NCBI GenBank assembly: GCA_964586975.1
Contig: CAZPJV010000001.1
Location: 36,372 to 79,332 of the forward strand
Direction of reading: 5' to 3'
Source: an uncultured Candidatus Saccharibacteria bacterium
Lineage (GTDB): Bacteria > Patescibacteriota > Minisyncoccia > Phycocordibacterales > UBA9973
Length of the DNA: 42,961 bases
The notes under the pieces were generated by a model. The model was given only the letters and a program-made list of their open reading frames with translations, did not search any database and was not told the DNA's origin. This document shows positions 24,312 through 38,795 of the stretch, piece after piece (the first letter of the stretch is position 1; the number at the start of each line of letters is the position of its first letter). A program made the position numbers and the translations under genes.

Positions 24312-24821
24312 ATGCACAAGAAAGACTCTTCCACCCCGTCTCGACTAAAGTCGAGCCACCCCTCAAGAGGGGAACATCCACCCCGGCGCAAGCGTCACCC
24401 CTCAAGAGGGGAATTATGGAATCCAAAATCTTTATATCCCTATTGGGAAATTCCTAAAAATAAACTTTTGATTGAAAGAGCAAAAGAATTAAGAAGAGCC
24501 GGAAATCTATCAGAAGTAATTTTTTGGCAAACCTTCAAAGATAAAAACAAGTTCGGTTTTGATATTGATCGGCAAGTTATTGTAGGCAATTACATCGTAG
24601 ACTTTTTTATTCCGGAACTAGGTTTGGTTTTTGAGATAGATGGCTCAAGTCATGGCGATAAAATAGAGTACGATGCAGAACGAGACGCTTTTATGACAGA
24701 TTTAAATTTGCGCGTAATTAGAATTCCCGATGTTGATATCAAGAAAAACATAGGTGGTGTCTATAATTTTGTTCTGGAAACTGTAGAAAAAAGAAAGAAC
24801 GCATTAAGATTCCCCTCTTGA
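24312..24821 (+). CDS. DUF559 (Vsr/restriction-endonuclease-like fold) protein; true start uncertain
   Basis: Core motif GNYIVDFFIPELGLVFEIDGSSHGDKIEYDAERDAFMTDLNLRVIRIP. The first ~35 codons and the TGA stop lie inside REP-like modules. No internal ATG precedes the conserved core. Confidence 0.65.
   Translation: MHKKDSSTPSRLKSSHPSRGEHPPRRKRHPSRGELWNPKSLYPYWEIPKNKLLIERAKELRRAGNLSEVIFWQTFKDKNKFGFDIDRQVIVGNYIVDFFIPELGLVFEIDGSSHGDKIEYDAERDAFMTDLNLRVIRIPDVDIKKNIGGVYNFVLETVEKRKNALRFPS
24330..24414 (+). repeat. Two tandem REP-like modules: TCCACCCCG + variable hairpin + CACCCCTCAAGAGGGGAA
   Basis: Module 1 (24330-24374) has the variable hairpin CTCGAC-taaa-GTCGAG. Module 2 (24378-24414) has GCGCAAGCG. 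The 18-nt terminal hairpin is identical in both. Confidence 0.75.
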
Positions 24822-24853: not shown

Positions 24854-25537
24854 CTATTTTATCGCGTCCAGTTTCTGCATCACCGCTTCATAGGGCAGGG
24901 CGCCGGGGATGGTGCCGACCAGTTTGCCGTTTTTTAGGATAAAGGAAGATGGCGTGCCGCTGACTCCCGCCCGCGTGCCGTCCGCTGTATCCGCGTCAAT
25001 TTTATCTTTGAATTTTCCGCTGGCTAGGCATTCATTAAACCGAGCGACATCCAGTCCCACATATTCCGCAATCTTCGGCAATTCGCTTGCCTCCAGGCCG
25101 TTATTGGCCGGAGTGATTTCAAAAACCCGGTCCGTGTATTTCCAGAAAGCATCGTTGCCGCCCTGTTCCCAGGCGCATTCCGTCGCTTCCGCTTCTTTGG
25201 GCGCTTTGGGATGCAGACCGACGATAGGGTAGTGCCGGTAAACCCAAGCGACGTTACCATTATTATCTTCAACTACTTGGTGCATGACGCCGTGAAATCT
25301 TTGGCAGAAGGGACACTCCAAGTCGGAATATTCCACAATCATTATTTTCGCGTTCGGGTTGCCCAGAATATGTTCATTTTTTTCAACCGGCCTTATTTGA
25401 GAAACGAGATTGCCACTGCTGTCCAGCGACACCGGGGTTCCGGTTGCGGGGACACTGCCTCTCAAAAGAATTGCTCCGGCGACCAGGGCTCCGGCTAAAA
25501 TTATGGCGCCGACTATTGGCTTTTGGTTGTTTTGCAT
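24854..25537 (-). CDS. DsbA-family thioredoxin-fold oxidoreductase, membrane-anchored
   Basis: N-terminal TM, active-site context YSDLECPFCQRFH, and GVSGTPSFIL-type motif (GVSGTPSSFILKNG). Confidence 0.85.
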   Translation of the reverse strand: MQNNQKPIVGAIILAGALVAGAILLRGSVPATGTPVSLDSSGNLVSQIRPVEKNEHILGNPNAKIMIVEYSDLECPFCQRFHGVMHQVVEDNNGNVAWVYRHYPIVGLHPKAPKEAEATECAWEQGGNDAFWKYTDRVFEITPANNGLEASELPKIAEYVGLDVARFNECLASGKFKDKIDADTADGTRAGVSGTPSSFILKNGKLVGTIPGALPYEAVMQKLDAIK

Positions 25538-25958: not shown

Positions 25959-27203
25959 ATGGCCGGAATAGGGGATATCATCCTTAATATTTTGCTTTTT
26001 TTGTCTGTCTACGTGCAGGTATTTTTTCTGGTTACTTTTATTGAAAATAGAAAAAAGATAACCATTCGCACAGGCGAAATAAAACTTGCGCGCTACCCCG
26101 CGGTGACCATAACCGTGCCCTGCTGGAACGAGGAGCAAACAGTCTACAAAACGGTGCGCTCTCTCTTAAATTTAAATTACCCGCAAGACAAAATAAAGAT
26201 TTTTCTGGTGGACGACGGTTCCACCGACGGCACCCGCGGCATCATCCGAAAATTCGCGCGTTATAAAAATGTGAAAGTTTTTCACAAGGCCAACGGCGGC
26301 AAGCATACCGCGCTGAATCTGGGGCTGGAGCATGCGGCGACGGAATTCGTGGGTTGCCTGGATGCGGATTCCATAGCTCATCCGGAGGCCCTGGCGCGCC
26401 TGATGAGTTATTTTGAAAAAGACCCGGCAGTGATGGCGGTGGCGCCGTCGGTGCTGGCGGCCGGCGCGGAAAATGCCGTGCAGTCGGCGCAACGGCCCGA
26501 ATATTATGTCGGCGCTTTCATTAAAAAAGTGCTAAGTTTGCTGGGAGGCATGTATGTCGTGCCCGGCCCCCTGACCGTCTTTAAAAAAGAAGTTTTTGAT
26601 AAACTGGGCCCGTATCGGCACGCTTATAATACCGAAGACCTGGAGATTACCTACCGGATGCAGAAAAATAAATATAAGATAGAGCAATGCCACGATGCTT
26701 ATGTCTATACGGCCACCCCGCCGACCCTCGGCCAGCTGTATCGCCAGCGAATTCGCTGGATTTACGGCTCCATCAATAATCTGATTGACTACCGCGGATT
26801 ATTGTTTAAAAAACAGCACGGCAATTTTTCTTTTTTTACCTTACCCTCGGTAGTGGTTGCGATTTTGACTATCAGCTACATTTTCGGCCGCATTATTTAT
26901 AACTTGGGTGATTACTTGTATGCCAAATTCTTGCAGGTCAAAATAACCGGCTTTTATTTTACCTCCAGCCCCAATTTTTTTGACCCTTTCTTTATTGATA
27001 TGCAGGCCGTCTTTTTCATCGGAGTGTTGTCTTATCTCTTTACCGTTTTCGCTGTAGTGGTGGGTAAAAAAATGGTGGAAGGCCGGTGGCGCTTCTCGGC
27101 GGATATGTTGTATTTTTTCGCCCTCTTCGGTATTTTTGTTCCGATTTGGTTCGCCCAGGCGATTTTTAATACGCTGGTTTCCCGGAAGCCCTCCTGGAGA
27201 TGA
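25959..27203 (+). CDS. Family 2 glycosyltransferase, processive synthase type (PgaC/IcaA/cellulose-synthase-like)
   Basis: N- and C-terminal TM segments, with VPCWNEE, VDDGSTDGT, LDADS, TEDLE and the QRIRW (QxxRW) motif. Confidence 0.85.
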   Translation: MAGIGDIILNILLFLSVYVQVFFLVTFIENRKKITIRTGEIKLARYPAVTITVPCWNEEQTVYKTVRSLLNLNYPQDKIKIFLVDDGSTDGTRGIIRKFARYKNVKVFHKANGGKHTALNLGLEHAATEFVGCLDADSIAHPEALARLMSYFEKDPAVMAVAPSVLAAGAENAVQSAQRPEYYVGAFIKKVLSLLGGMYVVPGPLTVFKKEVFDKLGPYRHAYNTEDLEITYRMQKNKYKIEQCHDAYVYTATPPTLGQLYRQRIRWIYGSINNLIDYRGLLFKKQHGNFSFFTLPSVVVAILTISYIFGRIIYNLGDYLYAKFLQVKITGFYFTSSPNFFDPFFIDMQAVFFIGVLSYLFTVFAVVVGKKMVEGRWRFSADMLYFFALFGIFVPIWFAQAIFNTLVSRKPSWR

Positions 27204-27209
27204 GAAACT

Positions 27210-27866
27210 ATGATTGATTGGAAAAAATATCTGATTGTGTTTCTGATTACCGCCGGGCTGTTTTTGACCGCCAGTTATTTGAGCAACTATTTCGGCGGCA
27301 AGAAAGTTGCGGAACTGAAAACTGTTCAGGACCAGATTGCCATTGACATCCTGTCTTCCGAAACCCAGTTCTCCCTGCTGTCCGAACTTTCCTGCAAAAA
27401 TATTTCCGGTTCCCTGCTGGCCGGCGAACTAGCGGAGTTGGGGCGGAAACTGGAGTGGGGCGAAAAAAATTTAAGCGATGACGCGACCCTGCTTTCTTTG
27501 AAGAGATATTACTTCCTGCTGGAAATCAAAGACTATCTCCTGTCCAAGAAAATTGCCGAGCGTTGCGGCAAAAAATCGGCCTTCATCCTGTATTTTTACG
27601 CCGCCGCGGCAGATTGCGACTTATGCGAGCAGGAAGGTTTGGTGCTGACGGCCTTGCGCGAAAAATATCCGGAACTGCGCGTTTATTCTTTTGATTACGG
27701 TGCCGACCTTTCGGCGGTCAAGGCGATGATTCAAATTTACAAAATCAAGGACACCGCACTGCCGGCGCTGGTGATTGACGACGACTTGCTGACCGGCTTC
27801 CGCGACCTTGAAGAACTCTCCGAGCTGATAGAAAAATCCTTCAAACTGCAGGGGGCAGAGGAATAG
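27210..27866 (+). CDS. Membrane-anchored protein with a C-terminal thioredoxin-fold-like CxxC domain
   Basis: N-terminal TM. The C-terminal part has AFILYFYAAAADCDLCEQ..LRVYSFD..ALPALVIDD, the pattern of a Trx/Grx fold with a CxxC motif and cis-Pro. Confidence 0.45.
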   Translation: MIDWKKYLIVFLITAGLFLTASYLSNYFGGKKVAELKTVQDQIAIDILSSETQFSLLSELSCKNISGSLLAGELAELGRKLEWGEKNLSDDATLLSLKRYYFLLEIKDYLLSKKIAERCGKKSAFILYFYAAAADCDLCEQEGLVLTALREKYPELRVYSFDYGADLSAVKAMIQIYKIKDTALPALVIDDDLLTGFRDLEELSELIEKSFKLQGAEE

Positions 27867-27955: not shown

Positions 27956-29185
27956 ATGAGAAGGCTAAAAATAACGGTGGGTGCGCACCAATATTTAATA
28001 TCCCTCCGGGTGGTTAGTGTTTTGTTTTTTATCTTTATATTTTTAGGTTCTTATTCGTTCTATCGTTCCAATCAAGTAAGTGCGCAAACGGTCGTGTTTT
28101 ATTCTACTAGTTGCCTAGGGGGATGGAAGAACGTGGAAAAGGCGATGGGCATGCCGGAGGTGGAGAACGGGATGGTGGCCGAATACAACGACAGCAATTC
28201 CGCCTCTCTTTCAAACACCACTTCGCAAATTTTTTGCGGGGGATTCAAAGGGGAAATTCCGAAAGATGCGCTCCAGAAAAAAATAGTTGTTAAATTTTCC
28301 TGGGCCGAAAAAAATACCAATAGCTCTCAAAATGAGCCGGACACTAACTCTGAGAGCGAGACTATTCCCTTAGAAGGGGAAGTGTTGTCCGGTGAAGTTG
28401 AACCTGAACCTGAAGTTTTGCCAGCAGAAGATGTCCCTCAAGAAATTTTACCAGAAGAAGAAGATTCAGGCACCGAGCTGGTGGAGCCAGAACCAGAAGC
28501 ATCCGAACCAACGGAACCAGAACCAACTATACTAAATTTAATAACCAAAACCGCGCACGCGGAAACCCTATATTTGGACGGCGATGTCCCAGATGGGCGG
28601 CTGGAAGTGTTTTACACCATTGACGGAGAAAATTGGCAGTCCTTAGGTTTTGTACCAGATGTTAATAATGGAGTATCTTTTGAAATGCCGACCGGTATAT
28701 TTACAACTGTGGAGGATTTGGAAAAAGTTCAGATTGCTATACATACAATGCCGACTTTTGACAATATTCATACCATATATTTGGACTCTGTTTGGCTGGA
28801 AGTGGAATATGAAAATCTGAATGCAGAGTCAGCAAAAGGAATCACTAGTTTCAAAATATTCGTTCTGCCTCAGGATAGGCTGGAAAAAGAAGTAAATGAG
28901 TGGCTGTCTCTGCAGAAAAACATAGAAGTGGATGATATCAAAGTGGAAGATTATGGCGGCGGCGGTTATTTGATAGTAATAAGCTATCACTCCGGCGGAA
29001 TCCTCGGCAACTCAACGGCGCGGCTTAAGGTTGTGGTAGGAGAAAATCCGGAAGCTGATGCTCAAACATTTTTATCAACCCTTCTGCCGGCACAAGTCGT
29101 GCACTCAATTACAGCCACCGCCGGCTCATTCTCCAGCCAACAAACGACTATTACCGTGCCAATAATTTTTATCGTTTACGAATAG
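27956..29185 (+). CDS. Hypothetical secreted/anchored protein with an acidic P/E-rich linker
   Basis: Signal-anchor segment and a low-complexity EPEPEVLPAEDVPQEILPEEEDSGTELVEPEPEASEPTEPEP linker. No family recognised. Confidence 0.45.
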   Translation: MRRLKITVGAHQYLISLRVVSVLFFIFIFLGSYSFYRSNQVSAQTVVFYSTSCLGGWKNVEKAMGMPEVENGMVAEYNDSNSASLSNTTSQIFCGGFKGEIPKDALQKKIVVKFSWAEKNTNSSQNEPDTNSESETIPLEGEVLSGEVEPEPEVLPAEDVPQEILPEEEDSGTELVEPEPEASEPTEPEPTILNLITKTAHAETLYLDGDVPDGRLEVFYTIDGENWQSLGFVPDVNNGVSFEMPTGIFTTVEDLEKVQIAIHTMPTFDNIHTIYLDSVWLEVEYENLNAESAKGITSFKIFVLPQDRLEKEVNEWLSLQKNIEVDDIKVEDYGGGGYLIVISYHSGGILGNSTARLKVVVGENPEADAQTFLSTLLPAQVVHSITATAGSFSSQQTTITVPIIFIVYE

Positions 29186-29189
29186 GCAT

Positions 29190-30149
29190 ATGGAATTTTC
29201 CAACCGAACATGGATAAAAATCGCATTGGTTTTGGTGATTGTGGATTTAAATCTTGTTTTAATAGGCTGGCCGTCATTTAAGCTTTATTTTTCAAAAGGA
29301 ATATCTAGTCCGTCTTATCCGCTTATTGACCAGTCCAGAGGTTTTATAGACCAAGAGCATTTTGTTGTCAACTTTCAGCCCTTGCGGGAAGACCTACGCG
29401 AGCTGGTGGCTAAAAAGGGGCTTAATTCAATAACTCTTTATTTTGAATTTTTAAACACGGGCGCGAATATATCAATCAATCCGGACCTAAAAATTTGGCC
29501 CGCCAGCCTAGCCAAACTGCCTCTCGCTATGGCGGCAATAAAAAAGGTGGAAAATGGAATCTGGAGTCTAAATACCCCCTTGGTAATGAACGAAGAAGAT
29601 AAAAGCATCCTATCTGGCACCCTTTTTGCTTACCAAGCCGGCACCTCGTTTGCGGTAGAAAATCTTATAGAAGAAATGCTTGTTCATTCAGATAACACCG
29701 CGTATACAATTTTATCCCGAAATATGACAGACCTGGAGCGCCGCACAATAATAGATGAGACGGGGCTGGAAGAGCTTTTTGACGAGGAAGGAAAAATAAG
29801 TAGTAAGGAATATTCACGTCTTTTTCGTTCTTTATATACTTCAAGTTTTTTACAGCGCGAAAACTCCTCAAAAATTCTATTATGGCTTTCAAAATCTGAC
29901 TTCAGCCAGTATTTATCACAGGGGATTGGCGAAGACATAGTATTTGCCAATAAATATGGCAAGAATTATCAATTCTATGTATATGCAAACTCGGGCATTG
30001 TGTATGTGCCAAACCGTCCCTTTATTATAACGGTTATAATCAAAGGCGATTCTACAAAGGACGAGGAAGAAGAAGAGAAAAAAGCGCAGGCCATCATGGC
30101 GGAAATTTCAGCCAAAGCCTACAAGTATGTGGTTAATTATAAAAAGTAA
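29190..30149 (+). CDS. Serine hydrolase, class A beta-lactamase / PBP-like fold
   Basis: N-terminal TM, SLAK (SxxK) and HSDNTAY (SDN). The third motif is degenerate (KYG). Confidence 0.6.
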   Translation: MEFSNRTWIKIALVLVIVDLNLVLIGWPSFKLYFSKGISSPSYPLIDQSRGFIDQEHFVVNFQPLREDLRELVAKKGLNSITLYFEFLNTGANISINPDLKIWPASLAKLPLAMAAIKKVENGIWSLNTPLVMNEEDKSILSGTLFAYQAGTSFAVENLIEEMLVHSDNTAYTILSRNMTDLERRTIIDETGLEELFDEEGKISSKEYSRLFRSLYTSSFLQRENSSKILLWLSKSDFSQYLSQGIGEDIVFANKYGKNYQFYVYANSGIVYVPNRPFIITVIIKGDSTKDEEEEEKKAQAIMAEISAKAYKYVVNYKK

Positions 30150-30163
30150 GATATAATTAAATC

Positions 30164-31261
30164 ATGGAAGGCTCCGGTTATAAAGGCGGTTTTAATAAAT
30201 TTCTAAGCATAATTTTGCTTTTAGGAATTTGTTTTACTTTTGTAAATATTTTATACGCCACAGCTCCGAATCCGGGACATGATTTTACCTCTGCTTCCGG
30301 CGGCGTGGTGCAAGGAGATGTCTTATATGGGTCTGCCGCGGACACCCTTTCAGCTCTAGCTAAAAATGCTTCTGCTACCAGATATATTGCTAATACCGGC
30401 ACTTCCAACAATCCCGCTTGGGCGCAGATTGATTTAACAAACGGAGTTACCGGAATTCTCACATCAGTAAATGGAGGCACCGGCAACGGCTTTACGAAAT
30501 TTAGCGGACCGGCGACTTCTGAAAAAACTTTCACTCTGCCAGATGCAAGCGCGACTGTTTTGACAAGCAACGCGGCAGTTACTGTCGCTCAAGGGGGCAC
30601 GGGAGCAACCACCTTGGGAGACGCCGGGGTTTTAATAGGCAATGCTACAGGCGCTGTGCAAGTAACCAGCGCCGGAACTTCCGGACAAGTGCTGACTTCC
30701 AACGGTGCTGGCGTTGACCCTACATTTCAGACTGCGGCTGGAGGAGATGATGGGCGTATTATATTTGATGCGTTGACAACAGGAGAGCAGTTTGACACCA
30801 CTGCAAACAGCACGTCAATGACGGAAGCGACCAACCTTTCCCAGACGCTAGCAGCCGGTACTTATGTCTTTCGCTATAATATTATTTACCGCACCAACGA
30901 CGCCGCAGACGGTATAAGATTTGGGGTGAATTTTACCGGTACCAGCGGCGCTTTTGTCTGGCACTGGTATGTGGTAAACACCGTGGCAACTGCTTCTAAT
31001 GCCGCCGCGGACCAGAACTCAGTTCTTTCAACAGCAACACTGCCTGGTTATTATGCTGCGCGAGTAAAGGCAACCAGCGGAGTGGGGACAACTGTTTCTG
31101 CAGATACAGTAAACGCTGACGTGCAGGCTATTATTGAAGGCGTATTTGTGGCGACTGGCTCGGGCGACCTGGAGCTTTGGGCGGGGAATGAGGCAGCCGG
31201 CACTGGGGACTTCAATTCTCTTATGATTGGCACAAGCGTGATGATATTTAAGACAAAATAA
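30164..31261 (+). CDS. Hypothetical surface protein with G/T/S-rich tail-fibre-like segments
   Basis: N-terminal TM. Repeated short motifs VNGGTGNG, AQGGTGATTLG and GQVLTSNGAGVDPTFQ resemble those seen in phage tail-fibre N-termini. Confidence 0.5.
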   Translation: MEGSGYKGGFNKFLSIILLLGICFTFVNILYATAPNPGHDFTSASGGVVQGDVLYGSAADTLSALAKNASATRYIANTGTSNNPAWAQIDLTNGVTGILTSVNGGTGNGFTKFSGPATSEKTFTLPDASATVLTSNAAVTVAQGGTGATTLGDAGVLIGNATGAVQVTSAGTSGQVLTSNGAGVDPTFQTAAGGDDGRIIFDALTTGEQFDTTANSTSMTEATNLSQTLAAGTYVFRYNIIYRTNDAADGIRFGVNFTGTSGAFVWHWYVVNTVATASNAAADQNSVLSTATLPGYYAARVKATSGVGTTVSADTVNADVQAIIEGVFVATGSGDLELWAGNEAAGTGDFNSLMIGTSVMIFKTK

Positions 31262-31264
31262 CTT

Positions 31265-32227
31265 GTGAATTTTCAATCAATAAAATTCTCTGCACTTATC
31301 CTCCTGATTATTGTTTACCCGACTACTGTTATAGCTGGCACGCTTACCTGCACCGTTGATACGAGTTGTGCGTCAGGGAGTATAATTTTCCGAATGTCCG
31401 CAACTTCCAATGCCCACTCCGAACTTACAAGCCAGTCAAATTATTCCCAAGTAGTCTGTTGCAGTGGAGTTACCAGCCTCGGCAATTCTTGTTCCGGAAC
31501 TTTTGCAACAGCTCTAAAACTTTCTGCTTCAACGAATGCGCACGCCGAACAGAATGATCAGGCAAATTATGCCAACAGCTCCTGTATCTCGGTGCCCTCC
31601 GGAGGTTCTGTCTCCGTGGCATATCAGGCGAGCAATTGCACCGGTTATGATACTACTGTCGCGTCTATCTCCGGTACCACTAATGCGCATGTGGGAGACA
31701 GTACCGCTTATACCACTAAAGTGTGCGCAACGGCGGTAGGAGGAAGCCAGTCGTTGACTTTCAGTATCTCCGACAATTCCATCGGCTTCGGCACGCTAAG
31801 TTCCGCAGATGATTTTTTTGCTAACGGCGCCGGTACCGGTTCGGCCACGGAAGTTGAAGCGCATACCATTACCGCTTCTACCAATGCTACGAGTGGCTAT
31901 ATAATAACCATTAATGGCGCGACGCTGGCTTCCGGCGGAAATACAATTACGGCAATTGGAGGAACCAATACTACTTCATCGGCTGGCTCCGAACAATTTG
32001 GTTTACGCATGACGGCCACGGGGGGTAATGGCGCGGTATCTGCTCCCTATGCGGCGGCAGGTTTTGCCTTAGACACAGCAAACTTTCCCGACCAAGTAGC
32101 TTCCGATGCCGACGGCGACGATGTAACAACCACGTATTCTGTCCGTTATCTAGGAAATATATCCAGTACGACAGAGGCGGGGAGCTATAGCGCGACTTTG
32201 ACCTATGTAATTACCGCCTCTTTTTAG
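31265..32227 (+). CDS. Secreted protein: Cys-rich three-repeat N-domain plus a shared beta-sandwich-like C-domain (paralogue A; GTG start)
   Basis: Signal peptide and three NAH-containing repeats. The C-domain (31751-32224) closely matches that of the next ORF. Confidence 0.6.
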   Translation: MNFQSIKFSALILLIIVYPTTVIAGTLTCTVDTSCASGSIIFRMSATSNAHSELTSQSNYSQVVCCSGVTSLGNSCSGTFATALKLSASTNAHAEQNDQANYANSSCISVPSGGSVSVAYQASNCTGYDTTVASISGTTNAHVGDSTAYTTKVCATAVGGSQSLTFSISDNSIGFGTLSSADDFFANGAGTGSATEVEAHTITASTNATSGYIITINGATLASGGNTITAIGGTNTTSSAGSEQFGLRMTATGGNGAVSAPYAAAGFALDTANFPDQVASDADGDDVTTTYSVRYLGNISSTTEAGSYSATLTYVITASF

Positions 32228-32326
32228 AGCAAAGTTATCCACAGGGGAGATAGTAATTGTTTTGTAGCTTTAATATAATAATGTATATATATTGGTATTA
32301 TAAAATACTGTGACAAAAAATTTTTT

Positions 32327-33361
32327 ATGCTTAATAAATTAACCGGTGCCGTGCTGGTGGTGTTGCTGGTGGCAGCTTGGCCCGCCCAAACCGCTCGCGC
32401 CGCGGCGTTGACCAGCAAATCAGATACACTTTCAAGTCAGAAAATAAGCACTCTCTCCAGCCATACGATTAAGTTTACCACCCCAACTGGAGCAGGCGAC
32501 TCAACCGACACCATTATTATTACTTTTCCCTCGGACTTTAACTTCACCTCAAAAGCAATAAGCACGGTGACTTTTACCCACGGCGCCACGACCGGCGCTG
32601 AAAGCACCGAAACTCTTGCCGCAAGTCCGAGCGCGACAGCCTGGGGCGCTGTTTTCTCCGGCACCCAAAATCGAATTCTCACGCTCACCGCGCCGACGGA
32701 CGGTGTAGGTGCCGCGGCTGTTGCGGCGAGCGACAAAATCATTCTTACGTATGACAGCACCAACTCCACCAATGCGACTTCAGCAGCATCATATACCATT
32801 GCCATTTCGGGCACCTTCGGTGATACGGGAGATATTGTCATCAACATCCTCGCTGACGACCAAGTTGCCGTGACGGCGACCGTGGATGAATCGTTGACCT
32901 TTACTATTTCCGACAATACTACTGAATTTGGCACTCTGACTTCCGCCGACGATTTCTTTGCCGATGATTCCGGTGGCAATGCTACCGAAGTGGAAGCGCA
33001 TACACTGGTAGTGGGCACGAACGCCACTAATGGTTATACGATGACGGTTAACGGCGCGACGCTAACTTCCGGAGCCAATACTATTACCGCCATTGGTTCC
33101 TCCAACACCGCTTCGTCTGCCGGTACGGAACAATTCGGTTTGCGCATGACCGCTACGGGCGGCTCCGGCACGGTGACTGCGCCTTATGCCGCCGCTGGTT
33201 TTGCGTTTGATACGGCGGCCTTTCCAGACCAAGTGGCATCGGCCTCCGGTGCTTCGGCCAACACCACTTATTCGGTAAGATATCTTGGCAACATCACTTC
33301 TTCCACTGAAGCCGGTGCCTATACCGCGACCCTGACCTATGTAGTTGCGGCCAACTTCTAA
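32327..33361 (+). CDS. Secreted T/S/A-rich protein with the shared C-domain (paralogue B)
   Basis: Signal peptide MLNKLTGAVLVVLLVAAWPAQTARA. The C-domain (32891-33358) shares long identical runs with paralogue A. Confidence 0.65.
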   Translation: MLNKLTGAVLVVLLVAAWPAQTARAAALTSKSDTLSSQKISTLSSHTIKFTTPTGAGDSTDTIIITFPSDFNFTSKAISTVTFTHGATTGAESTETLAASPSATAWGAVFSGTQNRILTLTAPTDGVGAAAVAASDKIILTYDSTNSTNATSAASYTIAISGTFGDTGDIVINILADDQVAVTATVDESLTFTISDNTTEFGTLTSADDFFADDSGGNATEVEAHTLVVGTNATNGYTMTVNGATLTSGANTITAIGSSNTASSAGTEQFGLRMTATGGSGTVTAPYAAAGFAFDTAAFPDQVASASGASANTTYSVRYLGNITSSTEAGAYTATLTYVVAANF

Positions 33362-33407
33362 TCCAGAATGTCAGAGAGAGGGGGGAGGGGTTACACACAT
33401 ATTTTTT

Positions 33408-34376
33408 ATGCGAAACTATATTTTCTTCATAACCTTGTTTCTTCTTGCCGGCGGGGTGGCGGTTCCGGCCGAAGCGCTTACCGTTTCTCCCGCCAAAGTT
33501 GAGATTCAGGCCGACCCCGGGCAGACGGTGCACAGCGAAATTGAGCTTTTTAACGAGCAGTCGGACACCAGAATTTTCTTTACCTCTTTTGAAAACTTTG
33601 AATCGCGGGGCGACTCCGGCGCGCCATATTTCACGGGTGCCAAGAGCGGTTTGGCTACTTGGCTTTCCGCGGCGCCGGAGATAAGCATTGCGACCGGGGA
33701 ACGCATTAAGATTCCATACACTATTAGTATCCCGGCTAGTGCCAAACCCGGCGGCTATTTTGCCGCGGTCTTTTTTGGTAGCCAGCCGCCCCAAAGCACT
33801 GTGGGGGGCGAAGTGTCTATCGGCGGCAAAATTGGCGTGTTGATTTTGCTTCGGGTGAACGGCGAGGTGGAGGAATCCGCCGGCTTAGTGGATTTTGGCG
33901 CGAAAGACGGCCGGCGCTTTTTTGTGTCCTTGCCGGTTCCGTTTGAATACGGCTTTAACAATACCGGCGGCGATCGAGTAGTGCCTCAGGGCGAGCTTGT
34001 TATCCGAAATACCTTTAGATTAAAATCAGCGACGCTTTTGGCTAATGAGCGCGAAGGTAGTGTCCTGCCCAACAGCACCCGTAGATTTGAAACATTGTGG
34101 GGTGAAGCGCCCGCCCGAAACGAGGCTAATGAAGAAATCCAATTAGGATTTTTCCGGACAGCTTTTGCGCAGGTGAAAAATTTCCACTTCGGCTGGTATA
34201 CGGCAAAACTTAATTTATCCTGGGGCGCGAGCGCTCAGACCGCTAACGCTTCATACAATTTCTTTATTATACCGTGGCAACTTCTCCTCATTTTCCTCGT
34301 CCTACTTTTTATTTTTTGGTTTCTGCTCAAAAGATACAATCGCTACATCATCGCTCGCGCGACGCGACAACAATAA
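33408..34376 (+). CDS. DUF916/DUF3324-like cell-surface protein with a C-terminal TM anchor
   Basis: Signal peptide, LTVSPAKVEIQADPGQTVHSEIELFN, IPASAKPGGYFAAVFFG, VLPNSTRRFETLW and the C-terminal TM LLLIFLVLLFIFWFLL. The pattern resembles CscA-type proteins of Firmicutes WxL loci (from memory). Confidence 0.55.
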   Translation: MRNYIFFITLFLLAGGVAVPAEALTVSPAKVEIQADPGQTVHSEIELFNEQSDTRIFFTSFENFESRGDSGAPYFTGAKSGLATWLSAAPEISIATGERIKIPYTISIPASAKPGGYFAAVFFGSQPPQSTVGGEVSIGGKIGVLILLRVNGEVEESAGLVDFGAKDGRRFFVSLPVPFEYGFNNTGGDRVVPQGELVIRNTFRLKSATLLANEREGSVLPNSTRRFETLWGEAPARNEANEEIQLGFFRTAFAQVKNFHFGWYTAKLNLSWGASAQTANASYNFFIIPWQLLLIFLVLLFIFWFLLKRYNRYIIARATRQQ

Positions 34377-34379
34377 TGA

Positions 34380-35420
34380 ATGAGTTTAAAATTACACTTT
34401 CTTTTTTTTATTTTCTGCTTGTTTCTGCTGTCGGCTGGCGCGGCGCGGGCAATTACCGTTGAAATTACGGCAACTGTCGCGGGTTGTGGCGATGGAGTAA
34501 TAGGATCCGGCGAACAATGCGACGGGTCCGATTTAGGCGGGGCGACCTGCTCTTCGCAGGGATTTTCCGGCGGCACTTTATCGTGCTCTTCTGCCTGCAC
34601 TTTTAACACTTCGCAATGTACTTCCGGTGGCGGTGGCGGTGGTGGTGGTGGCGGCGGCGGGGGAGGTTACAGTAGTACCTCGATTACAACCATTCCCAAT
34701 ACCAATGTGGTGTTTACCGGCCGAGCATATCCCCGAAGCACGGTGACTTTACTTAAAGACGCTCAAATTGTTGCCACTACTATTGCGAGCGCAGATGCAA
34801 ATTTCCAAGTTACTATTTCCAACATTTCCGGCGGGAATTATTTGTTTAGCGTTTACTCCGAGGACAATAAAGGCAATCGCTCGTCCTTGCTGACCTTCCC
34901 GGTGGGTATTACTGCTGGAGTAACCACAAAGGTGAGTGATATTTTCATAGCTCCTTCCTTGGCGGTGGATAAAAGCGAAGTCAGAAAAGGAGATACGATT
35001 TCAATATTTGGCCAAAGCGTTCCCACAGCGGCTGTTACCATTACCATTGGCTCGGACCAAGACTTTTTCGTGCAAGGAAGCGCGGACTCAAGCGGAATTT
35101 ATTTATTAAATTTTGATACCACTCCACTGGAAATGGGTCAGCATACTGCAAAATCAAAATCCTCTTTTAAGGGTGAGATAAGCCCTTTTTCTAAAGTGAC
35201 CAGTTTTATTGTAGGGACACAGAATATTTTAGCGCAAGCCCCAACGCAGTCTTCCCTAAAAGGCGACACAAATAGTGATAGCCGAGTCAATCTGGTTGAT
35301 TTTTCTGTTGCCGCATATTGGTATAAGCGCCCCAGCCCACCAGCAACAGCTGATCTAAATGGCGATAAGAAAGTCGATCTAGTGGATTTCAGTATTATGG
35401 CTTATTATTGGACCGGGTAG
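34380..35420 (+). CDS. Secreted protein: Cys-rich CGDG repeat, poly-Gly linker, Ig-like region and C-terminal dockerin
   Basis: Signal peptide and CGDGVIGSGEQCDGSDLGGATC. Two Ca-loop/helix dockerin segments are present: DTNSDSRVNLVDFSVAAYWY and DLNGDKKVDLVDFSIMAYYW. Confidence 0.7.
   Translation: MSLKLHFLFFIFCLFLLSAGAARAITVEITATVAGCGDGVIGSGEQCDGSDLGGATCSSQGFSGGTLSCSSACTFNTSQCTSGGGGGGGGGGGGGGYSSTSITTIPNTNVVFTGRAYPRSTVTLLKDAQIVATTIASADANFQVTISNISGGNYLFSVYSEDNKGNRSSLLTFPVGITAGVTTKVSDIFIAPSLAVDKSEVRKGDTISIFGQSVPTAAVTITIGSDQDFFVQGSADSSGIYLLNFDTTPLEMGQHTAKSKSSFKGEISPFSKVTSFIVGTQNILAQAPTQSSLKGDTNSDSRVNLVDFSVAAYWYKRPSPPATADLNGDKKVDLVDFSIMAYYWTG
34626..34667 (+). repeat. (GGN)14 simple repeat encoding 14 consecutive glycines
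   Basis: ggtggcggtggcggtggtggtggtggcggcggcgggggaggt. Confidence 0.9.
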
Positions 35421-35488
35421 TGAATTTTGGTGCTGTGCATAGCACGTACGAAACTGCGTTTCGTACAGCACCAAAATCTACTACCCGG
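35413..35488 (+). other. 76-nt multi-stem inverted-repeat structure spanning the dockerin gene stop codon
   Basis: P1 is CCGGGTAGT/ACTACCCGG (9 bp) and P2 is TTTTGGTGCT/AGCACCAAAA (10 bp). The mini-hairpin is GTGC-ata-GCAC. P4 is GTACGAAAC-tgc-GTTTCGTAC (9 bp). No T-tract follows. Confidence 0.55.
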
Positions 35489-35510
35489 GGACCGAGATAA
35501 AGTAGATAAC

Positions 35511-35777
35511 ATGTTTTATTACACTTATGTGCTTCAAAGAAAACAGAATGATGATTTGTATATCGGATATACGACCGATCTACGTCGCAGGATTTCAGAG
35601 CACAACAGTGGAAAGAATTTTTCCACAAAAAACAAAGGACTATGGCAGGTCATATTTTACGAAGCGTACCTTGATGCTGATGATGCAATGCGGCGAGAAA
35701 AGTATCTTAAATCAAGCCAGGGTTCGCGATTACTTAAACGTATGCTGAAAGAATATTTCTATAAAAGAAGAATATGA
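35511..35777 (+). CDS. Small GIY-YIG nuclease-domain protein (COG2827/UPF0213-like), copy 1
   Basis: YYTYVLQ..DLYIGYTTDLRRRISEHN..R(R)EKYLK. The stop overlaps the next gene's start (ATGA). Confidence 0.75.
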   Translation: MFYYTYVLQRKQNDDLYIGYTTDLRRRISEHNSGKNFSTKNKGLWQVIFYEAYLDADDAMRREKYLKSSQGSRLLKRMLKEYFYKRRI

Positions 35778-36646
35778 ACATTGTAACCAAAACCAAAATA
35801 ATCATTCCAATTCTTTCGCTCGCTTTGTGCGTGCCCCTACTAGCGCTTGCGGCGGAGCTTCGTTTGGATCCCCACAAAGTCGCGGTTGGCTTACGGGAGC
35901 AATTTATCGTGGATGTCGTTGTCAATTCCGCCGACTCGCTCAATGCGGTTCAGGGCCAACTGGTCTTTTCAGCGGAACAATTGACGCCGGTAAACATCTT
36001 GGACGGCAACACAGTTATTAATTTTTGGGTGGAAAAACCCAATAGTCCGGAGCCCGGAATAATTGCCTTTTCCGGCATTACTCCCGGCGGGTTCAGCGGA
36101 CCCACTAATCTCCTTTTCTCCGTGGTTTTTGAAGCGAAAAATACCGGCCCGGCTAACATTGCATTTCAAGAGATAAAAGTTTTGCTGAATGACGGACAGG
36201 GTACCGAGGCCGCCTTTTCGACCCGCAACACTACGATTCTCGTCAAACCCGGGGACAGCAATGTCCGTCGGGAAACATTCTCGGACACCGAACCGCCGGA
36301 AGATTTTACGCCGCTCATCGCCCGCGACCCGAATATTTTTGACGGCAAATATTTTTTGGTATTTTCCACTCAAGATAAAAAATCTGGTATAAACCGTTAT
36401 GAAGTACGGGAAGGCAAGTGGAGTTGGTTCCACGAAGCAGAAAGCCCTTATCTTTTGAGGGATCAAAATTTACGGAGTAAAATATACATAAAAGCGATAG
36501 ACCAGAACGACAACGAGCGACTGGTAATCGTAGCGTCGCGCAATCTCGCGCCCTGGTGGCAAGATAGCAATTGGATTGTTATAATACTAGGAGCATTGCT
36601 TGCCGGAATTTTAGCGAAAAAACTATGGCCAAACTCTACAAAATAA
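35774..36646 (+). CDS. Cohesin-like domain protein with a C-terminal TM anchor
   Basis: Signal peptide. The cohesin-like pattern is FIVDVVVNSADSLNAVQGQLVFSAEQL..GIIAFSGITPGG..LLFSVVFEAKNTGPANIAF. The C-terminal TM is WIVIILGALLAGILA. Confidence 0.6.
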   Translation: MNIVTKTKIIIPILSLALCVPLLALAAELRLDPHKVAVGLREQFIVDVVVNSADSLNAVQGQLVFSAEQLTPVNILDGNTVINFWVEKPNSPEPGIIAFSGITPGGFSGPTNLLFSVVFEAKNTGPANIAFQEIKVLLNDGQGTEAAFSTRNTTILVKPGDSNVRRETFSDTEPPEDFTPLIARDPNIFDGKYFLVFSTQDKKSGINRYEVREGKWSWFHEAESPYLLRDQNLRSKIYIKAIDQNDNERLVIVASRNLAPWWQDSNWIVIILGALLAGILAKKLWPNSTK

Positions 36647-38313
36647 TTTTTATTCTAGTGTTGGGGTTTTTGCCTTATTTAGCGTCTGCCGCGTCTCTTT
36701 CTTTTTCCTCAAGCAGCTCTCCGGCGGTCGGCAGCACCTTTACGGTAAATGTTTTGGTTTCAAGCTTGGATCAATCCATGAACGCGGCGTCGGGAATCGT
36801 TGCCTTTCCCTGGGATAAATTGGAAGTGGTTTCGGTATCAAAACAGGGCTCAATATTTTCCCTGTGGGCGGAAGAGCCGGCTTTTTCCAACAGCGCAGGC
36901 ACAGTGAGTTTTGAAGGTATTGTTTTAAATCCCGGCTTTAAAGGCGCTAATGGAAAAATTTTAACAATAAATTTTAGAGCCAAGCGGGAGGGCCAGGCCA
37001 ACTTGAGTTTTTCTTCCGGTTCGGTTTTAGCCAACGACGGTTCCGGCACAAACATTCTGTCCGATTTGCGGGTTGCGGTCGTAGTTATCGGTTCTTCTCC
37101 AACGCCAGTACCCGATGTTATAGCGGCCGAGGGAGCTCCGCTTATAACTTCTACAACCCATCCCAATAGCTCACTGTGGTATGCCAACAAAAATCCCGAG
37201 TTTGCGTGGAAACTACCCGCCGGAGCTATCGCTGTCCGCACATCTATCAGTAAATCTGCTGGCGCCGAGCCGTCGGTCCTGTATGAACCGCCGATTTCCA
37301 AAAAGAAAGTGGACAATTTGTCGGATGGCACGCACTATTTTGCGCTGCAAATCAGGGACGCTACTGGTTGGGGTAAAATCGGACGGTATAAAATAAATAT
37401 TGACACCATTCCACCCGAACCGTTTGCTATTACCTTTCCTCATGGCAATTCCACGCTGGAACCCCAGCCAGTGATACTTTTTAATACCAAGGACACAGCA
37501 TCGGGCGTGAGCCACTATGACATCAGAATCAACGACGGCGGCCCCGACCGCAAAGTACCCCAGACGGATTCCAATCCATACCCCCTGCCGCCTCAAAAGC
37601 CCGGCAATTATATTGTCAAAATAACCGCCTTTGACCGCGCCGGCAATGCGACCAATACGTCTGAAAAATTTACCATTGAAGCCATCCGCGCGCCGACCAT
37701 TACCTACTATCCAACGGAAATAGAGTCGGGAGATTTGCCCAGGATTAGAGGCAATACTTACGAAGATGCCGATGTTACTATTAAGGTCTGGGAGAGCGGC
37801 GAGGAAATATCCCAAGAGTATGTCCGAAGTAATTCCAGTGGCGATTTTAATGCCTTAGTAACCAAGCGCCTTTCGCCAGGCACCTACACTTTCACTGTTT
37901 ACGTGACCGATGCCCGAGGCGCGAGCAGTAATGAAACAGAACCGCTCCAAATTCACGTAGAATCCCGCTTTATTAAAGACATTACCGATATCTTTCTAGA
38001 CTATTTTGGCAGAGCGATGACCATTGCATTCTTGCTCTTGGGCGCCGGAGTGGGCCTGTGGTATTTCTATGCAAAGACGATAAAAAAATTGCAGTATTTG
38101 CACCGGCGGGAAAAAGAAGCCGAGAAAACTACCGTAAAATCTTTCGAGCTTTTGCGCAAAGACATAGATGCTCATATCGCGCGCCTCAAAAAAGCGCAAA
38201 CCAGACGCAAGCTCACCGATGAGGAAGTGCAGTTTCTGGAGCAATTTGAAGAAACTTTAGCGGAAGCCGAAGGCATCATTGAGAAAGAAATACGCGGCAT
38301 TGCCGAGTCCTAA
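36625..38313 (+). CDS. Large cohesin-like domain surface protein with Ig-like repeats, a TM segment and a cytoplasmic coiled-coil tail
   Basis: Start chosen at MAKLYK (signal peptide). The cohesin-like pattern is FTVNVLVSSLDQSMNAASGIVAFPWDKLEVVSV..GTVSFEGIVLNPGF..ILTINFRAKREGQANLSF. The TM is MTIAFLLLGAGVGLWYFYA. Confidence 0.6.
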   Translation: MAKLYKIIFILVLGFLPYLASAASLSFSSSSSPAVGSTFTVNVLVSSLDQSMNAASGIVAFPWDKLEVVSVSKQGSIFSLWAEEPAFSNSAGTVSFEGIVLNPGFKGANGKILTINFRAKREGQANLSFSSGSVLANDGSGTNILSDLRVAVVVIGSSPTPVPDVIAAEGAPLITSTTHPNSSLWYANKNPEFAWKLPAGAIAVRTSISKSAGAEPSVLYEPPISKKKVDNLSDGTHYFALQIRDATGWGKIGRYKINIDTIPPEPFAITFPHGNSTLEPQPVILFNTKDTASGVSHYDIRINDGGPDRKVPQTDSNPYPLPPQKPGNYIVKITAFDRAGNATNTSEKFTIEAIRAPTITYYPTEIESGDLPRIRGNTYEDADVTIKVWESGEEISQEYVRSNSSGDFNALVTKRLSPGTYTFTVYVTDARGASSNETEPLQIHVESRFIKDITDIFLDYFGRAMTIAFLLLGAGVGLWYFYAKTIKKLQYLHRREKEAEKTTVKSFELLRKDIDAHIARLKKAQTRRKLTDEEVQFLEQFEETLAEAEGIIEKEIRGIAES

Positions 38314-38324
38314 AATACATGCGG

Positions 38325-38424
38325 AGCCGGAAGAGGGATTCGAACCCTCGACCTTCGCTTTACAAAAGCGTTGCTCCCCGCCCGCAACGCTCTCGCTTGC
38401 GAGGCGGGCGGGTACCAACTGAGC
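38325..38424 (-). pseudogene. tRNA-Thr(UGU)-like 3' portion: D-arm with a 36-nt hairpin insert, anticodon arm, T-arm and acceptor 3' strand TTCCGGC; the acceptor 5' strand is missing
   Basis: The minus strand reads GCTCAGTTGGTA[CCCGCCCGCCTCGCAAGCGAGAGCGTTGCGGGCGGG]GAGCAACGCTTTTGTAAAGCGAAGGTCGAGGGTTCGAATCCCTCTTCCGGCT. Confidence 0.55.
38371..38424. repeat. 54-bp direct repeat, left copy (identical to 38742-38795)
   Basis: ttgctccccgcccgcaacgctctcgcttgcgaggcgggcgggtaccaactgagc occurs twice, 371 bp apart. Confidence 0.9.
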
Positions 38425-38494
38425 CGGTGGGGGGATTCGAACCCTCGACCTTCGCTTTACAAAAGCGTTGCTCTGCCAACTGAGCTACACCGGC
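38422..38494 (-). tRNA. tRNA-Thr (anticodon UGU), canonical 73 nt, no encoded CCA
   Basis: Hand-folded. The acceptor is GCCGGTG/CACCGGC and the D-arm is GCTC-AGTTGGCA-GAGC. The anticodon arm is ACGCT-TTTGTAA-AGCGA. The variable loop is AGGTC and the T-arm is GAGGG-TTCGAAT-CCCCC (one A:C mismatch). Confidence 0.85.
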
Positions 38495-38495
38495 T

Positions 38496-38732
38496 TCATA
38501 TTCTGCTCTTTAAAAATCTTCTACCGTATCCTGTTTTAAAGTATCTTTCTCTCTTTATAGCATTTTCCTTACTCGTACACGCTTCATAGTACACTAATTT
38601 TAGAGGTCTTCTATTTTTAGTAGCGGCTACTTTACCTCTATTATGATCCAATATACGTAACTTTAGATTATTAGTCCAGCCTATATACAATTTATAATCT
38701 ATATTGCTTTGTAGAACATAAGTGTAGTTCAT
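38496..38732 (-). CDS. Small GIY-YIG nuclease-domain protein (COG2827/UPF0213-like), copy 2
   Basis: MNYTYVLQS..KLYIGWTNNLKLRILDHN..RERYFK, a paralogue of the 35511-35777 product. The stop lies 1 nt before the tRNA-Thr 5' end, and the start lies 10 nt after the 54-bp repeat. Confidence 0.7.
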   Translation of the reverse strand: MNYTYVLQSNIDYKLYIGWTNNLKLRILDHNRGKVAATKNRRPLKLVYYEACTSKENAIKRERYFKTGYGRRFLKSRI

Positions 38733-38741
38733 ATTATAATT

Positions 38742-38795
38742 TTGCTCCCCGCCCGCAACGCTCTCGCTTGCGAGGCGGGCGGGTACCAACTGAGC
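38742..38795. repeat. 54-bp direct repeat, right copy
   Basis: Identical to 38371-38424. Confidence 0.9.

Follow-up and report, generated by a model that had tools for sequence, protein, structure and literature searches.

A dockerin protein and two membrane-anchored cohesin proteins at the 3' end of a Pam-type pilus operon in Patescibacteria

Patescibacteria account for a large share of bacterial diversity and lead a host-attached life, and how they build and hold their surface structures is little understood. That question is raised in concrete form by a 42,961-nucleotide (nt) stretch of DNA from an uncultured Candidatus Saccharibacteria bacterium (assembly GCA_964586975.1, contig CAZPJV010000001.1, positions 36,372 to 79,332 of the forward strand), which we refer to as the window and number from its first letter. 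The window encodes a secreted protein that ends in a dockerin (protein A) and, downstream of it, two transmembrane (TM)-anchored proteins that each begin with a cohesin (proteins B and C; Table 1). Cohesin-dockerin pairing is used outside cellulosomes, and organisms from all parts of life are known to have such modules. Peer et al. 2009 is said to deal, at least in part, with non-cellulosomal modules of this kind. A sequence-only reading of this stretch had taken the three proteins for a possible surface scaffold. What, then, would one dockerin and two cohesins do together on such a cell? Our analyses indicated that the trio is a three-gene surface module conserved in Patescibacteria, that it forms the 3' end of a Pam-type donor-strand-exchange pilus operon, and that A may couple a filament to the membrane.

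Protein A consists, in order, of a signal peptide, the N-terminal strand ITVEITATV, a Cys-rich segment, a run of 14 Gly, Ig-like domains and a C-terminal dockerin. Pfam identified an Ig-like Big_6 domain (40.6 bits) and Dockerin_1 (PF00404; residues 294-341, 25.6 bits against a cutoff of 22.9), and no catalytic domain was found in Pfam or NCBIfam. When the A family profile was searched against all PDB sequences, only dockerins were returned (six of six matches); the single sequences of A, B and C gave linker or Ig noise only, and the B and C family profiles were weak too. More than 2000 homologs of A were found, the best 120 of which are 58-98% identical to it and about 340-370 amino acids (aa) long. 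Both 12-residue, EF-hand-like Ca loops keep D1, N3, D5, N/D9 and D12 in 103 of these 120, the loops are spaced by 29 residues, and the D-F-S that starts the helix is invariant. By count along the sequence, positions 1 and 12 are D296 and D307 in the first loop and D325 and D336 in the second, although the family alignment puts position 1 of the second loop at residue 329. The two repeats are near-symmetrical, and their helix positions are nearly invariant across classes; we regard the dockerin as type-I-like. The Cys-rich head gave at best a faint DUF4215 match (E 0.09). These results bore out the sequence-only reading in the C-terminal dockerin and in the Cys-rich segment (with six Cys that are invariant among homologs), Gly run and Ig-like domain of A. 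Its coordinates are right too, with A and B placed as in Table 1 and C ending at 38313.

That reading also had B and C beginning with cohesins, which are nine-stranded beta-sandwiches of ~140 aa, and profile searches recovered this for C, which scored 28.5 bits on PF00963 (cutoff 24.1), while for B the case is made by its structural model and its paralogy with C. Of the 50 PDB matches that Foldseek listed for the AlphaFold model of B (pLDDT 83.5), nearly all were cohesins, the exception being a CLIPPER domain at rank 47. The top single match was 2xdh, a non-cellulosomal cohesin from Archaeoglobus (target-normalised TM-score 0.81), and the top pair match was the cohesin plus FN3 double module 2w1n (E 1e-11). 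Alignment of the B family with the C family by hhalign gave a probability of 99.9% (E 3.6e-36) over the cohesin and the membrane-proximal Ig-like domain, and on this comparison B and C are paralogs. Each of the two cohesin families keeps the residues NAxxG, W, F.GI..PG and NDG.GT invariant, in a form similar to that of the other family, and they fall on strands 3, 5, 6 and 8, in the strand order given by DSSP for the B model. In solved complexes, the sheet of strands 8-3-6-5 is the dockerin-binding face of cohesins. Judged from strand order rather than superposition, the conserved residues of B and C would lie on that sheet.

Hydropathy supported the signal peptides and C-terminal TM helices of both proteins, in agreement with the sequence-only reading. 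Because basic residues follow the TM helices, the cohesins are placed outside the cell, in a membrane-distal position. Alignments of homologs set the start of C at the ATG at 36625, so that its gene overlaps that of B by 22 nt.

Protein C has two regions beyond its cohesin that deserve mention. Between the cohesin and the Ig-like domains (residues ~170-262; 37132-37410, + strand) lies a conserved domain with the motif ITSxTHPDQxKWYxNNxPEFSW...DGTYYF...GWG...NIDTTPP, which had no match in Pfam or NCBIfam and is missing from B. The 79-residue cytoplasmic tail is 44% charged, with heptad-like hydrophobic spacing, and is strongly conserved (RKLTxEExxFLExFE); within residues 484-562, R528, L530, T531, E533, E534, F537, F541 and L545 are near-invariant across classes, and family matches to the tail were weak and BAR-like only. 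Such conservation suggests that the tail has a specific cytoplasmic partner.

Co-conservation of the trio had been set beforehand as a test of the sequence-only reading, and it proved extensive. Using the alignment of the C family as the query against one genome per GTDB species, we found a relative of C encoded in at least 432 species genomes and kept 80 loci; a scan of the same collection with the single C protein found nothing. The kept loci span orders of Paceibacteria, ABY1 lineages (Magasanik-, Uhr- and Falkowbacteria) and one Microgenomates genome. Some of their automated titles (Saccharibacteria, Gammaproteobacteria) look unreliable, and every taxon-specific title is a Patescibacteria lineage. 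Proteins A, B and C each have hundreds to thousands of relatives at 40-70% identity; where these have an organism-specific name, it is nearly always one of Patescibacteria (Nomura-, Kaiser-, Taylor-, Wolfe- and Campbellbacteria, among others); occasional other labels, such as Spirochaeota, are probably mis-binned.

Gene order was assessed with family hidden Markov models (HMMs) in non-redundant loci with enough upstream DNA, and in 57 of 60 the dockerin gene is followed by the short and then by the long cohesin gene; the exceptions had an extra cohesin gene, an apparent fusion, or C alone. Within 10 kb on either side, no locus had more than one dockerin open reading frame (ORF), and exactly two cohesin ORFs were present in 71 of 84 loci, as they are in the window together with its single dockerin ORF. 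The genes are tightly packed: in many loci those of B and C share ~20 nt, the gap from A to B is typically below 10 nt in related loci, and 3 nt separate A from the gene before it in the window. Scans for promoters and terminators gave signals at or below shuffle expectation. Some of these proteins are already named 'dockerin type I repeat-containing' or 'cohesin domain-containing' by NCBI, and we found no paper in which this conserved trio, or a connection between it and a pilus operon, is described. Cultivated Saccharibacteria have an essential dockerin protein, SEML1_0315 (PMC10633639), which was considered as a possible ortholog and rejected, being 927 aa long and encoded at an unrelated locus.

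The genes upstream of the trio provided the context that the sequence-only reading had overlooked. The Pam system was presented in a preprint on Ca. Mycosynbacter amalyticus (bioRxiv 10.64898/2026.03.03.709456), which reports it mainly in Saccharimonadia and Microgenomatia. The components named in the same preprint are PamA-E, PamT and PamR. Among them, PamC/D are membrane-anchored, PapD-like chaperones, PamT is the tip pilin, and PamR (WP_260763282.1) is a terminator that is TM-anchored and RbmA-like; a tail fibre-like protein is co-localised with the system. In PamR, two beta-sandwich domains come after a beta-strand at the N-terminus and before a TM helix at the C-terminus, and the proposal there is that it donates its strand to the last pilin and tethers the filament.

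Two genes upstream of A in the window matched the NCBIfam model NF058581 (CPR_Pam_pilin_C, 'Pam pilus system pilin subunit'; release of June 2026), with 81.8 bits for pilin 1 and 79.1 bits for pilin 2 against a cutoff of 55. The AlphaFold model of pilin 2 (pLDDT 94.3) has two domains, with residues 176-189 unpaired and outside any strand, and Foldseek searches with this model returned generic two-Ig adhesins only. Proteins of up to 2889 aa end in the same C-terminal domain as the pilins. Between the pilins and A lies a gene for a chaperone-like protein, which had no NCBIfam match. Weak, sub-threshold matches to Pfam WxLIP_PGBD were seen in 16 of its 27 orthologs (best E 7.4e-5) and none in the window copy. 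We consider it a candidate PamC/PamD-like chaperone; a two-Ig-domain layout is read from its sequence and from this WxLIP resemblance, and its extracellular region has a size that would suit a two-domain, PapD/FimC-like chaperone. By HMM search, 37 of 51 loci have such a gene as the immediate upstream neighbour of the dockerin gene. A 365-aa protein encoded before the pilins is a candidate for the tail fibre-like protein on its composition and position; BLAST found its orthologs upstream of pilins in 10 loci, and it had no match in Pfam or NCBIfam.

From the NF058581 matches of two upstream genes, and from the chaperone-like gene that follows them, we therefore place the trio at the 3' end of a Pam-type operon, in the order pilins, chaperone-like gene, A, B, C. 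This context points to a role associated with a pilus rather than to a stand-alone scaffold. The more general part of the sequence-only reading, a non-cellulosomal surface attachment, remains a fair one, as there is neither a glycoside hydrolase in A, B or C nor a multi-cohesin scaffoldin. In distant lineages, the proteins upstream of the trio end in a similar ...G.Y.G...T... motif and fall below the NCBIfam thresholds.

The start of mature A offers a further connection to the pilins. Its consensus in the family, xTVEITAxV, resembles the inter-domain linker QVAVTATV of the 344-aa type of pilin. Of 120 A homologs, 46 have the motif V.[IV][TS][AG].V at exactly this position, and 30 of 114 pilin representatives have it in their linker, against a background of 0.0175 per 1000 residues of other ORFs; an alternating hydrophobic pattern is kept at the N-terminus of A in 108 of the 120 homologs. 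Because the trio ends a Pam operon and the N-terminus of A is pilin-linker-like, we propose A as a terminator or adaptor of the filament.

The simplest and most likely account of the trio, to judge from the co-occurrence of its genes, is a Ca2+-dependent plug and socket that would retain A on the cell surface. Protein A would be exported through its signal peptide, and its dockerin would plug, in a Ca2+-dependent manner, into the cohesin of B, of C, or of both, which as type I membrane proteins would each present a single cohesin at the membrane-distal end. Protein A could then act as a soluble terminator or adaptor, in which the N-terminal strand would complete the last pilin at its C-terminal domain while the dockerin would couple the base of the filament (or an adhesin head) to the membrane through B and C. 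For this reading as a whole, in which A is held by dockerin and cohesin, the trio ends the operon, and A couples filament to membrane, we lean in favor with moderate confidence. A bolder version, that a cellulosome-type plug and socket was co-opted in monoderm Patescibacteria as the coupling of a donor-strand-exchange pilus to the cytoplasmic membrane, is possible and advanced tentatively. There, A would be the last Pam subunit, held by two cohesin receptors, one of which would relay to a cytoplasmic tail. If this were true, the pilus would be attached non-covalently and in a Ca2+-dependent way and could potentially be released, in keeping with the easy shedding of Pam filaments observed by electron cryotomography.

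Several observations weigh against the reading that we favor. The preprint names a different protein, the TM-anchored PamR, as terminator and mentions cohesins and dockerins nowhere, and none of A, B and C matched any Pam model in NCBIfam. Pilin and chaperone-like genes were not detected beside the trio in several distant lineages (L058, L064, L074 and L083), so pilus genes need not adjoin it. As for the strand motif, it is short and rich in Thr, Val and Ala, its strict form is present in fewer than half of the A homologs, and the N-terminal strand of A could instead simply belong to the Cys-rich domain. Finally, B scored 19.7 bits on the Pfam Cohesin model, below the cutoff of 24.1.

On one rival view, A would be a stand-alone adhesin, docked on B and C, with its Cys-rich head as a tip for a ligand on a host or substrate and with the pilus genes as mere neighbours in an island of surface-protein genes. 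A conserved disulfide-rich head on a flexible 14-Gly linker suits such a role, as do the lineages that have the trio without detectable pilin or chaperone-like neighbours, and other dockerin-bearing envelope proteins are essential in cultivated Saccharibacteria, where they were proposed to target host glycans (PMC10633639). Against it stand the near-universal and tight order of the chaperone-like gene, A, B and C, with gaps of a few nt, the frequent place of the chaperone-like gene directly before A, and the pilin-linker-like N-terminus of A; we judge it unlikely. A different view accepts the folds and denies the partnership: the cohesins of B and C would bind pilins (as a platform replacing an usher), peptidoglycan or glycans, and the dockerin would serve as an end module, stabilised by Ca2+, with a structural or carbohydrate-binding role. 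The cohesins do have unusually invariant GITPGG and NDGxGT loops that are missing from classical scaffoldin cohesins, and cohesin-like folds with other functions exist, such as the CLIPPER domain (9ifr) among the Foldseek matches. That the sole dockerin of each locus is strictly accompanied by, and adjacent to, its two sole cohesins speaks for partnership, as do the near-invariant helix positions of the dockerin, which are expected of a conserved protein interface, and we hold this view to be distinctly improbable.

The idea that cohesins and dockerins most readily call up, a minimal cellulosome-like system displaying polysaccharide-degrading enzymes, draws on their standing as hallmark modules, and one candidate phyla radiation (CPR) study read such domains as evidence of cellulosomes (bioRxiv 10.1101/2021.08.21.457207). 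Here, each cohesin protein has one cohesin, so that there is no multi-cohesin scaffoldin, and the sole dockerin sits on a non-catalytic protein with Ig domains; neither glycoside hydrolase nor carbohydrate-binding module was found in A, B or C, and the anchor is a TM helix rather than S-layer homology (SLH) repeats or a sortase. On account of the single cohesins, the non-catalytic dockerin carrier and the TM anchor, a cellulosome is effectively refuted for this locus, and we give it next to no probability.

Table 1. Positions in the window of the trio, the upstream pilus genes and their neighbours.
Feature	Coordinates	Strand	Remarks
Protein A, 346 aa	34380-35420	+	Secreted dockerin carrier; Pfam Big_6 and Dockerin_1, both above cutoff
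A, mature N-terminal strand ITVEITATV (residues 25-33)	34452-34478	+	Pilin-linker-like; proposed donor strand
A, Cys-rich head (C36-C80, six invariant Cys), then 14-Gly linker (residues 83-96)	34485-34667	+	From homolog alignment columns
A, dockerin module (residues 294-346)	35259-35417	+	Two Ca-loop and helix repeats
Protein B, 290 aa	35774-36646	+	Signal peptide, cohesin, FN3/Ig-like domain, TM helix, short basic tail
B, cohesin (residues ~27-160)	35852-36253	+	
B, FN3/Ig-like domain (residues ~170-255)		+	
B, TM helix (residues 266-286)	36569-36631	+	
Protein C, 562 aa	36625-38313	+	Signal peptide, cohesin, THPDxxxWY domain, Ig-like domains (Big_13), TM helix, charged tail
C, cohesin (residues ~22-155)	36688-37089	+	
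C, TM helix (residues 464-483)	38014-38073	+	
C, tail (79 aa)	38074-38310	+	
365-aa protein	30164-31261	+	N-terminal TM segment, Gly/Thr-rich repeats; candidate tail fibre-like protein
Pam-type pilin 1, 320 aa	31265-32227	+	Signal peptide, Cys-rich N-terminal domain (8 Cys), C-terminal Pam pilin domain
Pam-type pilin 2, 344 aa	32327-33361	+	Two beta-sandwich domains, linker QVAVTATV (residues 182-189)
Chaperone-like protein, ~323 aa	33405-34376	+	Signal peptide, extracellular region of ~255 aa, C-terminal TM helix 282-312
GIY-YIG nuclease-family gene	35511-35777	+	Between dockerin gene and first cohesin gene; stop overlaps ATG of B (ATGA)
Second GIY-YIG gene	38496-38789	-	Just downstream of the operon; 45% identical to the first
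Three operon-flanking genes, coordinates given as a set (thioredoxin, GT2, 218-aa protein)	24854-25537, 27210-27866, 25959-27203	-, +, +	

The sequence-only reading had B and C as the next two structural genes after A. A GIY-YIG nuclease-family gene lies between A and B. In other genomes the gap between A and B holds different small ORFs (L012:4391-4774, L036:2100-2573, L069:1195-1650 and L073:8219-8656), which by eye resemble either PD-(D/E)XK proteins of the 'GxxExxY' kind or four-helix bundles of the 23S-rRNA-IVS kind, and in two homologs of B a domain of this sort is fused to the protein (PF13366; PF05635). This gap has the look of a hot spot into which small selfish genes insert recurrently. 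Another small nuclease-type neighbour is a DUF559 gene (Vsr-like endonuclease fold; 24312-24821, +) with an unusual basic, Pro/Ser/Arg-rich N-terminal extension. Downstream of C, a tRNA-Thr(UGU) gene (38421-38494, - strand; region 38316-38494) is immediately followed by a partial second copy, which retains the D-arm, anticodon arm and T-arm, has a different 3' acceptor strand and lacks the 5' acceptor strand. This copy, whose D-loop is extended by a palindromic, GC-rich insert of ~36 nt, scored 28.3 bits on the Rfam tRNA model (gathering score 29), and could be an integration scar or an interrupted tRNA.

Further upstream in the window, a membrane-anchored class-A beta-lactamase-like serine hydrolase (29190-30149, +; Pfam Beta-lactamase2, 121.7 bits) is preceded by a gene for a 409-aa protein with an acidic, Pro/Glu-rich linker (27956-29185, +), and both genes recur upstream of pilins in several related loci. 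Genes that flank the operon also encode a DsbA-like thioredoxin that is secreted, a glycosyltransferase of the GT2 type (chitin-synthase-like) and a membrane protein of 218 aa whose thioredoxin-like matches are faint; the last two adjoin the trio in a Kaiserbacteria genome as well (L001). Their products may help to form disulfides in the Cys-rich surface proteins or to glycosylate these.

The description of the Pam pilus dates only from 2026, and its anchoring without an outer membrane or usher rests on the predicted model of one organism. A syntenic module of one dockerin and two cohesins in hundreds of species offers a concrete and cheaply testable mechanism of anchoring or adhesion. Its interest lies mainly in proposing, in specific and testable form, how a monoderm CPR cell keeps hold of Pam-type filaments or adhesins. 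If it is correct, cohesin-dockerin biology would extend from the display of enzymes to the attachment of filaments or adhesins, and the many loci would be a source of naturally orthogonal cohesin-dockerin pairs for protein engineering.

Among known systems, the Firmicutes WxL clusters consist of two WxL proteins and a TM-anchored WxL-interacting protein (WxLIP; PMC10599100). The pilus part of the operon (31265-34376) is similar in having two secreted proteins that share a C-terminal domain and, after them, a TM-anchored protein that is like WxLIP in size and layout, and in the small and giant versions of its secreted proteins. WxL clusters have no cohesin or dockerin genes. The WxL domain, which has dual Trp-x-Leu motifs, was not matched by Pfam in the window proteins and 25 family members; these have no W-x-L motifs, and the C-terminal motif is TLTYVxxANF. 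A reading of the upstream genes as a WxL cluster was partly dropped after NCBIfam identified the Pam pilins. The likeness hints that WxL clusters and Pam pili may be evolutionarily related donor-strand systems.

The model of B has its best structural matches in 2xdh (Archaeoglobus fulgidus) and in the cohesin-FN3 module of Clostridium perfringens GH84C (2w1n). Those systems link enzymes or toxins, or have partners that are unknown, and they have neither a conserved operon with TM-anchored paralogous cohesins nor a link to a pilus operon. In arrangement, the trio resembles the single-cohesin anchors OlpA and OlpC of Clostridium thermocellum, in which one cohesin on a cell-bound protein captures one secreted dockerin protein, as B or C would capture A. 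The B model superposes on such anchors with target-normalised TM-scores of 0.77 (3ul4) and 0.70 (4dh2), and the two near-symmetrical Ca-loop and helix repeats of A are like those of the type I dockerin partners of OlpA and OlpC. In contrast to these, B and C are anchored by a C-terminal TM helix rather than SLH repeats, their presumed cargo is a non-enzymatic Cys-rich and Ig protein, and there are two paralogous receptors per dockerin, in a Patescibacteria host with no cellulolytic genes seen in the window.

A further comparison is with PamR, which belongs to the same type of operon. Taken together, A (with its N-terminal strand) and B or C (with beta-sandwich domains and a TM helix) hold the same parts as PamR. 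Unlike PamR, in which these parts form one protein, here they are split between a soluble protein and its membrane receptors, which would be joined by dockerin and cohesin, and PamR is RbmA-like (two FnIII domains) rather than a cohesin. By analogy, we hypothesize that A with B and C could be the equivalent of PamR.

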